A stretch of 64,000 bases of DNA from Stegostoma tigrinum (lineage: Eukaryota), in the NCBI RefSeq assembly GCF_030684315.1, contig NC_081356.1, forward strand, positions 87,156,835 through 87,220,834, written 5' to 3'. The stretch's first letter is position 1; the number at the start of each line of letters is the position of its first letter. A model generated the notes under the pieces. The model did no database searches, was not told the origin of the DNA, and saw nothing but the letters and a program-made list of their open reading frames with translations. The position numbers were made by a program, and so were the translations under genes. This document shows positions 3,110 through 34,600 of the stretch, in pieces.

Positions 3110-3480
3110 TAATCTTTCAAATCAGCCATTAAACCAGGGATCCATCCGCACTTCCAGGTACACACAAACAATTTCATGACTGAAAAAAAGAGATAACAAG
3201 GTGTAGAACTGGATGAACACAGCAGGCCAAACAGCATCTTAAGAGCAGGAAAGCAGGAAAGATGCTGCTTGGCGTGCTATGTTCATCTTGTTATCTCGGA
3301 TTCTCCAGCATCTGCAGTTCCTATTATCTCATGACTGAAGAAAAGCAAATTGAGCTCTCTCTCCTGTCCCAGCAAATTTTATCCCTCAGCTAACATCAAC
3401 AAACCACAGATTCTTTTGGCTAGTACTGCTACGTCATTGTTCCATGTATTGTCACATTACCTGTAGCACAACAAACATTT
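3110..3480 (+). mobile_element. partial DeuSINE-like SINE interrupted by a PLE hairpin
   Basis: TTAAACCAGGG..TTTATCCCTCAGCTAACATCA matches the Deu-domain copy at 41640-42420. Confidence 0.5.
3191..3328. mobile_element. fold-back PLE terminal fragment with 17-bp target duplication
   Basis: Inverted arms GATAACAAG..GATGAACACAGCAGGCCAAACAGCATCT / AGATGCTGCTTGGCGTGCTATGTTCATCTTGTTATC; flanks TCATGACTGAA(A/G)AAAAG at 3174-3190 and 3329-3345. Confidence 0.85.
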
Positions 3481-4119
3481 TCTTGGATTTTGCACTGGAA
3501 ATTAGACAGCCAAAAGGCTTAGACACCCACAGGTATCCATGTGAACTGTGCAACAAGTGCATATCTGCAACTGCAGAAGAGATCATGTTTAGCTTTGCAC
3601 AAGCCTAGAAGTAAGTTAAAACTTAATTTGGTAATTTTATTTTACAGCAAGCAAACCTTTTTATTAAGCAGCACCTATGGGACTAGGGATGTGCTGGTTG
3701 GTCAAACAGTCCAGATAATCAAGAGGTATGTAATAAACCTTGAACAAGCAAAGCTTTGAGACATCAACATTGCTCAAAAAAATCAATGAAAAACACCAGT
3801 ACACCTCCTGAAATCAATGTAAAAGCAAACAGTAAGTAACAGAAATGCAATGCAGGGGCAAAACACACTGTCATACTTTAGTTACATCTTAAATGCTAGG
3901 GCATTGTGGTGGATGGTGGGGTAGTGAGACATAGGTTTTGCTGGTTTATCAAGAATGCTGGTTGATAAACTGCTGGTTAAAACAAAATTTGCTATACTTT
4001 CTCTTCCCACATCCAAGTCATTAATACAGACTGGAATTAGTTGGGACCCAGGAACTGCATCCTGTGGCACCCAACTAGTTGTATATTGTCAACCTGAAAA
4101 AGACCCATTTATTTTGGCT

Positions 4120-31600: not shown

Positions 31601-34600
31601 GGTTCTGGGTAGTCTAGAACGGGGGGGCTCAGGTACACAGTTCTTTGAATGTTGCATCTGAGACAGACAAGGTGGTTCAGCGTGCTTGCCTTCAGTGCTC
31701 AGACCATTGAGTACAGGAATTGGAATGTTGTGTTGATGTTGTACAGGATGTTGGTGAGGCCACCTTTAGAGCACTGTGTACTGTTCTGGTCACCCTGCTA
31801 TAGGAAAGGAGAGGGTTCTGAAAAAGTTTACCAGAATCATTCTGGGACTGGAGCGTTTGAGTTATAAGAACAGGCTGGAACTTTTTCTACTGGAGCATAG
31901 AAGCTTTAGGGGTGACCTTTATAGAGGTTTATAAAATCCATGAGGGGGCATACATGAGATGAATAGTGTAGGTCTTTTCCCTAGGGTGGGGGAAGTTCAA
32001 ACTAGAAGACATAATTTTAAGGTGAGAAGAGAAAGATTTAAAAGGGACCTGAGAGGCAACCTTTTCAAACATAGCATGGTGCATATGTAAAGAAGAACTG
32101 CTAGAGGAACTGATGGATGCAAGTTCAGTTACTGCATTTTAAAAAATTTTGGATAGGTACATGAAAAGGCAAAGCTTAGCGAGCTATAACCCAAATGCAG
32201 ACAAATAATACTAGTTCAATTTCAGAGGTTTGCTCAGGATAGATGAGTAGTTCTGAAGAATCTGTTTCCATGCTCTATGGCTATGAATGTTGAGAGTTCT
32301 TGGGAAGTATTGACACTTATTTCACGAAGTCCTTTTTAGAATAAACATCAATTATTTGTGAAGTAATGAACCATTTTCATTTTTGAGGTAGACTTGTACA
32401 GTGCATAGAAAAGTGAATTGGTGAGAGGTAACATTGGAAGTATGCACAGTGTATGGTACCCTATGAGGTAACCTCAGGAACCTTTTGCACTACTATTAGA
32501 GATATGGGCTAGGAATCACTGACTTTTCACTACCCTCCTGTAGATAGCCTTATAGTTTTGATAAGTCACATGCCTTTGTATTCAAACTTCCTTCAACCAA
32601 TCTACAAAACAAACTGCACCAAATTGGGTAGATCAGTGGTATTAACAAAAATCCTGTTATTAAGGATTATTACCTTGCTAACTTTTAGTATCCTAATAAC
32701 TGTTCGACTATACCTGCAACTCACCACCTCTCCCAGCTCGCTGCCTCAATCCGTCTCCTGAACCAGCACTGTGAGCCAAGGCTTAGGAAGGGGGGCATAG
32801 CAATACGGGCTTTAAAGATGAAAATATTGAATGGATTTGTTTTACTTCAGGTGCCAAGTTCACCAGCTTGATAATCCTGCAGAAACATACAACGAATTAA
32901 TGGATCTTATTGTTAAACTCGCTAATCATGGTTTAATTCATGGTGACTTCAATGAATTTAACTTGATGTTGGATGATGAGGACCATATCACAATGATTGA
33001 CTTTCCACAGATGGTATCTACATCTCATCTAAATGCTGAATGGTAAATACAATTAATTTCTGTTCATTTTATGTTGGGTGACTTACCACAGATTTAGAAT
33101 GAATGATACTTTGTTTGTTGCACAAATAAATCAATATTGATTTGCATTCTGCAACTCGTTAAGTTGTAATTGCCTGTCCTACAAAGGCGCATTACCTGAG
33201 TAAGACTTTACTTCCAGCTTTTCTTTCACAAGTACCCAACTGTTTGATTCATAACAGATTGGTAGTTCCTGTGTATGAAGTGATTATGGTCTTTATCCAG
33301 TAGAACCCACAACCAAGACTAAAGCTAGAATTTGTAAGAAAATATACGCAACATAGAAGCAAATGTCCAGAACCACCACGATTTTTTTTTTGAAAAAAGG
33401 ATTGGGGTGGGCATCCTTTTTTATCTCAGTTCTGTGGAAAGGTTTCCATTCACAATGTTAGGTCTCTTTCGGGTAGTTGTGGATCTGTTCAGTACTTGCT
33501 GCTTTTATTTTGAACATGCAGTATTTGTAGTATTACTTCCTTTTCTAACTCTCACACTGTCTCTCTTTTAAAGACTCTGCTGAGACAGTTATTTTGCATG
33601 ATGGCTGAAGCAAATAATGTTATAATTTGGTAGATTAGCTCTCAATTCTTGGATGGTGAATTTTTAATGTCACTAAATAGAAGATACTCAACAGGGGGAA
33701 AATAAGGTTCAAAAAGAAAGCTGGAATCAGGGTTGAAAGAGGGAAAAGGAAACTTCCTCTCTGCTAATTTTACTTGTCAACAATCTAAATGGCCCTCCTG
33801 TCTTTGTGACGTTGTGTGTGTTGGGATGGGATTTGGTGGTCATTAAAGTACAAAATCAAAAGTTAATGATGATTAGAAAATCATAAGATCTTAATAAAAT
33901 TCCTATTTGTTTCACAAAGGAGAAAGTAAATTTTTGATGATAGTGGGAACTGCAAATGATGGAGAAGCTTCTGAAGAAAGGTCTAGGCCTAAAACATCTG
34001 CTTTCTTGCTCCTCTGCTGCTTGGCCTGCTGTGTTCATCCAGCTCTACATCTTGTTATCTCTTTTTAGCAAATTTATAATGGCAGTTTTTTTTAAAGTGA
34101 TGAGTTTCAGGGAGGCTTTCAAAAAAGTATATTTTTTATACAGCAACTCTGAAAATATTCATTATAAAATGATCTTTTTCCAGGTATTTTAATCGGGATG
34201 TAAAATGCATTTGTGATTTTTTTATCAAGCGCTTTAACTACGAAAGTGAACTTTATCCAACCTTTAAGGATATCAGGTGAGCAACGTTTGAATTGATACA
34301 TTCCTGTGGAGTTTAATTTTATAACTTTAGACTAATTTATTGGATGCTGTTTGGTAGTATGTTCAAAAAGTATCATTTTATGCCCACCAATAATGCAATT
34401 TTGTTGGCTATCGTTTGGGAGTACAGAACTTGGATATGCTGAAAGAGATGCTGCAAGAACAAAAAGAAGTATCCCAATTATCTGAGTAGGTTAAGCAAGG
34501 TATTACATTTGCTACTATGTAGTGGTGATGTAAGTGGCATTTTCCACTAACAGTTTGCTGTCAGCTCAGAAGACATACCTATTACAATTAAATAATTTTT

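Follow-up and report, generated by a model that had tools for sequence, protein, structure and literature searches.

The window is a 64-kb stretch of Stegostoma tigrinum DNA in which five insertions, here called A to E, each contain two ends of a Penelope-like element (PLE). In every one the two ends are opposite in orientation, with their 3′ ends outward, and one is tailed and the other tailless, as a sequence-only reading had reported for these same five positions. Insertion A (3191–3329) consists of a tailless minus arm at 3191–3254 and a tailed plus arm at 3260–3328, lying between the copies of a target-site duplication (TSD) of 17 nt with one mismatch (3174–3190 and 3329–3345). In insertion B (4120–4332) a tailless minus arm, whose 5′ end lies at −77, is joined through a 3-nt microhomology to a tailed plus arm starting at −62, within a perfect 11-nt TSD (4109–4119 and 4333–4343).

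Insertions C and D are nested. The older insertion, C (25783–28402), has a tailless minus arm at 25783–25860 that resumes past D at 27938 and runs to ~28130, followed by a tailed plus arm from ~28140 to 28402. It matches D at 74–76% and has no TSD (score 3), and its insertion site is read straight through in 17 other copies of the repeat that hosts it. The young insertion D (25861–27925), lying within C, has a tailed minus arm reaching ~26950 and a tailless plus arm starting at ~26955, with a perfect 15-nt TSD (25846–25860 and 27923–27937). Insertion E (33939–34061) joins a minus arm made up of the tail alone (33939–33965) to a tailless plus arm starting at −78, with no significant TSD (score 6, where 26% of mismatched pairs reach 7). 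Because its left arm is only tail, and no sequence is common to both arms, E is not a fold-back. The fold-back architecture claimed for all five insertions does not extend to E; the claim that three carry target duplications of 11–17 bp is borne out by A, B and D.

The element can be followed in insertion D. Its tail (25861–25891, minus strand) is the first ~30 nt downstream of the pseudo-LTR (pLTR), a segment which in a full-length copy lies in the 5′ leader upstream of the ORF. On the plus strand lie a TATTTAT motif and putative TATA box at −110 (27797–27803), position −80 (27827), a predicted minimal hammerhead core with CTGATGA, stem II, GAAA and CGTC (27831–27858; predicted cut 27858/27859, or −48), and the near end window with its TTATCT motif, where tailless arms stop (27918–27925).

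Three further tailed copies, all on the minus strand, lie in the window. One, absent from the sequence-only reading, occupies 9414–9542 and starts at −80, with a G and a short piece left over from an inverted arm ahead of it. A longer copy of ~1.87 kb (13142–15009) sits in the 3′ UTR of another copy (12986–13123), and a short solo copy (45777–45899) has its 5′ end at −77. Two window copies, at 25846–25860 and 12986–13142, landed in the 3′ end of a copy of the same family. Other inverted repeat pairs in the window (28771–28902 with 31675–31806, 51925–54391 and 41381–43626) are probably opposite copies of unrelated interspersed repeats.

The parent element and its abundance

The plus arm of insertion D contains 3′ UTR sequence and encodes a CX4CxxC linker and a GIY-YIG domain (identified in translation, with a Pfam E-value of 2e-4, slightly under the curated cut-off); the 3′ ends are therefore outward and the arms head-to-head. 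A full-length copy at ~40.043–40.047 Mb of contig G000:C2 comprises, in order, a tailless copy in inverted orientation, a tandem copy that is truncated, and the ORF, which is broken yet colinear and has DKG, the reverse transcriptase (RT), CX4CxxC and the endonuclease (EN). Since the tail of the truncated tandem unit continues there into the 5′ leader of the ORF, the tail is where the next unit begins, and it stops ~35 nt short of the ATG. At locus L115 (~6400–6540, minus strand) a short upstream frame begins after the hammerhead, crosses the tail and ends at a TGA that shares the frame of the main ORF and lies 13 codons ahead of its ATG.

A set of 148 relatives consists of single proteins of 800–950 aa, most with RT (PF00078) and many with GIY-YIG (PF01541) Pfam matches. 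The translations contain DKG, and a CxxC inside the GIY-YIG core is followed by two downstream H residues, giving the CCHH set. RT and, at the C terminus, GIY-YIG occupy a single ORF, and the copies display partial-tandem pLTRs, an inverted copy, a 30–40 bp tail and a TSD of variable length. On these translations and this layout, the insertions belong to an ordinary autonomous endonuclease-bearing (EN+) PLE with RT, CX4CxxC linker and GIY-YIG. The C-terminal GIY-YIG with CCHH, the DKG, and a linker between RT and EN that falls within the CX2-5CxxC pattern agree in motif with the Neptune/Nematis type as its motifs are given in PMC8557442.

The family is abundant. An exact 26-nt tail sequence occurs 110,317 times in the 3.2-Gb genome and its reversed control not once (genome-wide counts here and below are exact pattern matches). 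A diverged repeat (G000:C1 at ~254,100 and ~469,200; L071 and L092) has the anchor and part of the tail in common with the element and a different end; it may be a related PLE or a SINE family.

Inverted pLTRs, a tail at one end and a TSD have already been described for EN+ PLEs (PMC3846280, PMC8557442). In what those accounts set out (PMC3846280; legend to Fig. 2 of PMC8557442), the Pen2a_Av-type unit is like ours in its partial tandem with an inverted, 5′-truncated copy placed head-to-head, its tail of 30–40 bp at one end, its TSD and the TATA-like motif in its pLTR. The shark element differs in the regularity of the tail, which is ‘optional’ or ‘often’ present at one end in the Pen2a_Av-type descriptions and occurs once in 57–58 of 58 pairs here, in TSDs that are mostly 14–16 bp rather than 8–10 bp, and in its more than 100,000 copies, mostly short.

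Pairing of tailed and tailless arms

We took a census across 1,664,000 bases from five contigs, the window included. It yielded 318 termini, from which 18 segmental duplicates were dropped to leave 300 (141 tailed and 159 tailless), among which at least two residual duplicates remain. One sampled region, G000:C10:20,000,001-20,200,000 (L151–L170), is itself a tandem segmental duplication of ~92–96 kb at 96–99% identity.

Inverted pairs were far more frequent than chance: of 70 pairs of neighbouring termini no more than 500 bp apart, 55 lay head-to-head where 25% would be expected (p = 8e-21), and in 53 of the 55 exactly one arm was tailed. Head-to-head neighbours within 8 kb were then scored for TSDs at a cut-off reached by 0 of 250 mismatched pairs, which 58 of 94 passed, the remaining 36 being without a TSD. 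Exactly one arm was tailed in 57 of the 58 TSD-confirmed pairs (p = 2e-16), and the 58th is a false tail call arising from an adjacent repeat. TSD length was 14–16 bp in 40 of the 58, and the side of the tailed arm (left in 21, right in 36) showed no significant bias (p = 0.06). With 116 of the 300 termini falling in TSD-confirmed pairs, hairpins are a routine product here, as the earlier reading had held.

The outer ends are peaked. Among the 51 scorable pairs (one of the 58 failed junction fitting and seven per side were not placed in register), tailless ends lie 14–19 nt past the anchor motif in 42 and tailed ends 50–56 nt past it in 39. Each window follows a TTATC motif, TTATCT at the near one, and the two are ~34 nt apart. 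The statement that tailless arms stop at the same point was too strong; of the two fixed priming points ~30 nt apart that the sequence-only reading had placed on the two cut strands, two zones ~30–35 nt apart are supported, and ‘fixed’ gives way to windows of 6–7 nt. Mean microhomology between target and RNA at the two outer ends was 1.9 and 1.75 nt, against 0.7 nt in simulation, an excess that can also be attributed to end joining.

Formation of the two arms

The pairing of one tailed with one tailless arm, head-to-head, probably arises from two target-primed reverse transcription events at both ends of one staggered cut. The target would be cut with a stagger of ~14–16 bp and both cut ends would prime reverse transcription, one of them using the near site and its partner the far site. 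Use of a single site by both would be very rare, the probable reason being that one RNA is held by a protein dimer. The resulting pair of cDNAs would then be joined at their 3′ ends through microhomology or a short fill-in. The mechanism outlined in the sequence-only reading was to this extent largely right, and also largely anticipated in print; its fixed priming points and its fold-back mobile system are the parts that were not supported.

Several properties of the pairs bear on this scheme. Of 57 pairs, 25 have a tailless arm that exceeds its partner by more than 10 nt, 12 show the reverse, and in 20 the lengths are about equal. Central joins vary from long fill-ins to 19-nt overlaps (overlap −274 to +19). 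The two arms of a pair fall in the same subfamily and are sister tips in ~7 of 14 long pairs, and in one pair the arms are unlike at 6 common alleles. A single stretch of RNA is copied in both arms, which requires either strand displacement or two RNAs, and the arm trees do not choose between these. Counted against twin priming, among the five window insertions, is the one with two full arms and no TSD.

A minor class of arms resembles that in insertion E. Tail-only arms ending at the near site account for 4 of 11 anchor-less tails, which start at offset 22, and the corresponding pattern has 281 matches genome-wide. They adjoin tailless arms with perfect TSDs, and such a class would be expected if the cDNA from the far site at times runs into the one from the near site.

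In L1 twin priming, both target strands prime on the RNA and the result is an inversion joined by microhomology; the second primer anneals at variable internal sites and the arms do not overlap. Insertion E resembles a product of that process. The shark element is unlike L1 in that both of its proposed priming sites are set windows and its arms usually overlap fully.

Two start sites have been demonstrated in vitro for Poseidon of Anolis carolinensis (PAc), where they bound the tail and both strands are cut and extended (PMC11167929). The same work predicts a dimer, describes a protein-assisted ribozyme with no RNA ends found at the ribozyme cut, and reports that the strands did not differ in the start sites they used and that priming involved no homology. 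In the portions of its text available, the two sites are not paired with the two strands and inverted insertions are not discussed as products. The Stegostoma element is like PAc, as described there, in having two putative internal RT start windows bounding a tail, in the cutting and extension of both strands proposed here, in a predicted hammerhead within the pLTR, and in AT-rich targets (TSDs 65% AT versus 57%). It is unlike Poseidon in possessing a CX4CxxC linker, of which Poseidon has none, and unlike PAc in the placing of its tail upstream of the ORF start.

The in vitro result weighs against an alternative in which both arms, or a free hairpin DNA, are first made with tails and the endonuclease then removes one tail during resolution. 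Such trimming also predicts exactly one tail, and PMC8557442, where it treats the tail, considers EN-mediated resolution its most likely source. Reverse transcription starts at both sites in vitro (PMC11167929), however, and priming accounts better for the tail-only arms next to tailless arms with perfect TSDs and for the microhomology found at each of the outer ends. A window of 6–7 nt may also be broader than a cut in DNA would be expected to leave. We consider this alternative unlikely.

Copy-back, in which one cDNA folds back and copies itself or antisense RNA primes itself, was put forward in PMC3846280, and palindromic central joins do occur. The tail cannot be templated by a tailless first arm, however, and in 25 of 57 pairs it is the tailless arm that extends further 5′, the difference reaching 1.7 kb; those pairs are therefore not copy-back of the tailed arm. 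The explanation is largely refuted for these 25 and could apply to a subset of the other 32, and as a general account it is very unlikely.

That short hairpins are instead a non-autonomous element copied as a unit, as the ‘ribozyme-bearing fold-back mobile system’ of the sequence-only reading would have it, is more improbable still: exact joins do recur (the sample has three instances of one −80/−81 join, and the −48 palindrome is the site of 878), but recurrence is expected if RNA 5′ ends are fixed, joins vary widely, and among six hairpins joined at −48 the subfamily alleles and the outer ends are not the same, although both arms at each locus have their alleles in common; these six were therefore formed independently. 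The fixed join and ends and the separate lineage of a non-autonomous fold-back element or retrozyme are not seen. Twin priming by an ordinary autonomous PLE remains our preferred reading, and the hairpins are in all likelihood its by-products rather than a separate mobile unit.

Arm 5′ ends and the Penelope cycle

The 5′ ends of the arms concentrate at −80. In the census 59 of 299 fall at −79 to −81 and 106 at −73 to −83, compared with 35 over the 186 positions from −84 to −269; genome-wide, 9,645 ends lie at −80 and 74 at a control site at −110, a 130-fold drop. Of 80 long copies, 68 have a TATTTAT box at −110/−111, starting 30 nt upstream of −80. A G precedes −80 in 83 of the first 100 matches listed, by hand count, and also in 7 of 9 ends, sorted by hand, whose neighbour is non-element DNA (p = 0.002). 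Across all subfamilies the base before ends at −78 to −82 is T in 28, G in 26, A in 15 and C in 3 (n = 72), and the excess of G is partly confounded by microhomology with the other arm.

The pile-up at −80 is likely to reflect run-off at a capped transcription start after priming in the 5′ leader. Under twin priming, most short hairpins would come from priming in the 5′ leader of a transcript starting at −80 in the upstream pLTR, with RT running off the capped end and often adding a base opposite the cap, seen as the extra G; for a smaller share, run-off may take place at the predicted hammerhead cut at −48. A transcript start in the upstream pLTR of a partial tandem is known for Drosophila virilis Penelope (PMC2377424), and our putative start is alike in position; the D. 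virilis promoter is internal and TATA-less, unlike the TATA-like box 30 nt upstream here.

Other pieces of sequence adjoin the run-off ends. At three loci (L217, L218 and G000:C3 at ~87,031,900) a further sense-strand segment of the element (3′ UTR, post-ribozyme region or ORF start) stands before the −80 arm, which suggests template jumps after run-off and, possibly, a route to tandems. Short untemplated GAT or GATGAT pieces also recur just upstream of run-off ends; a telomerase-related RT may have slipped and copied the hammerhead core again.

A second, smaller peak lies at −48, with 3,622 ends genome-wide against 949, 729 and 614 at neighbouring positions. A 4-nt palindrome at this position swells the count: among the first 100 matches listed, 60 are joins of the palindromic type, often counted on both strands. 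The predicted hammerhead would cut at this position. Its core pattern occurs in 137 of the 189 copies covering the region, with a G-C pair in stem II in 108–122 of the 137 and no compensatory changes of note. Minimal hammerheads have been reported in Neptune and other PLEs (PMC4209133), and the sequence features given there for the PLE minimal type I are present: CUGANGA and GAAA cores, stem II, a palindromic 15.2–16.2 region and an extra base after position 9. Stem I is 2 bp only. An Rfam search of the sequence returned no hammerhead, only generic hairpin (miRNA) matches below the gathering score, and the minimum-energy fold lacks the hammerhead core (z = 0.43). Confounded as it is by the palindrome, the −48 peak is no more than suggestive of run-off at the predicted cut.

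Both peaks might instead have other causes: at −80 the RT may stall where a long pyrimidine tract begins or where a protein is bound, and the −48 peak may be due to the palindrome only. A C-rich tract does start exactly at −80, and the microhomology confound of the G excess would suit a stall; the TATA-like box at the canonical 30-nt distance, the 130-fold drop at −110 and the G in flank-joined ends speak against it. Similarly, two other nearby 4-nt palindromes yield 80 and 190 joins, compared with 878 on the −48 palindrome. This pair of causes is rather doubtful, and run-off at the ends of RNA is the reading we retain.

These insertions are real, routine and genome-wide, and neither the element nor its shape is a new kind of system. 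What appears new relative to the literature, judged from the genome sequence, is the strict pairing rule and the putative RNA ends at −80 and, as a smaller and confounded peak, at −48. In the literature outside subscription papers, Repbase and Dfam, we found no report of the strict one-tail rule, of this family, or of run-off ends or a −80 pile-up with an extra G; PMC9977147 and bioRxiv 10.64898/2026.07.22.740005, in their available portions, treat none of the one-tail rule, run-off ends or this family.

More tentatively, and with somewhat less than even confidence, the genome may be a fossil record of the Penelope cycle, in which one protein dimer on one RNA would prime the two cut strands at two mutually exclusive sites, RT would run off a capped, TATA-driven leader, the cDNAs would be joined as hairpins or jump templates to regenerate tandem pLTRs and the promoter, and the hammerhead would cut RNA in vivo. 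The origin of tandem and inverted PLE structures is called undefined in PMC8557442, where it touches on them, and in PMC2377424 no obvious way to regenerate the pLTR was seen. If the cycle is true, strong-stop-like run-off cDNAs jumping to another template would be how tandem pLTRs, and hence the promoter, regenerate. A family of more than 100,000 copies yields predictions, countable and at the level of single bases, for the PMC11167929 in vitro system, namely one site per strand, a 14–16 nt stagger, run-off at a capped start and the use of ribozyme-cut RNA.
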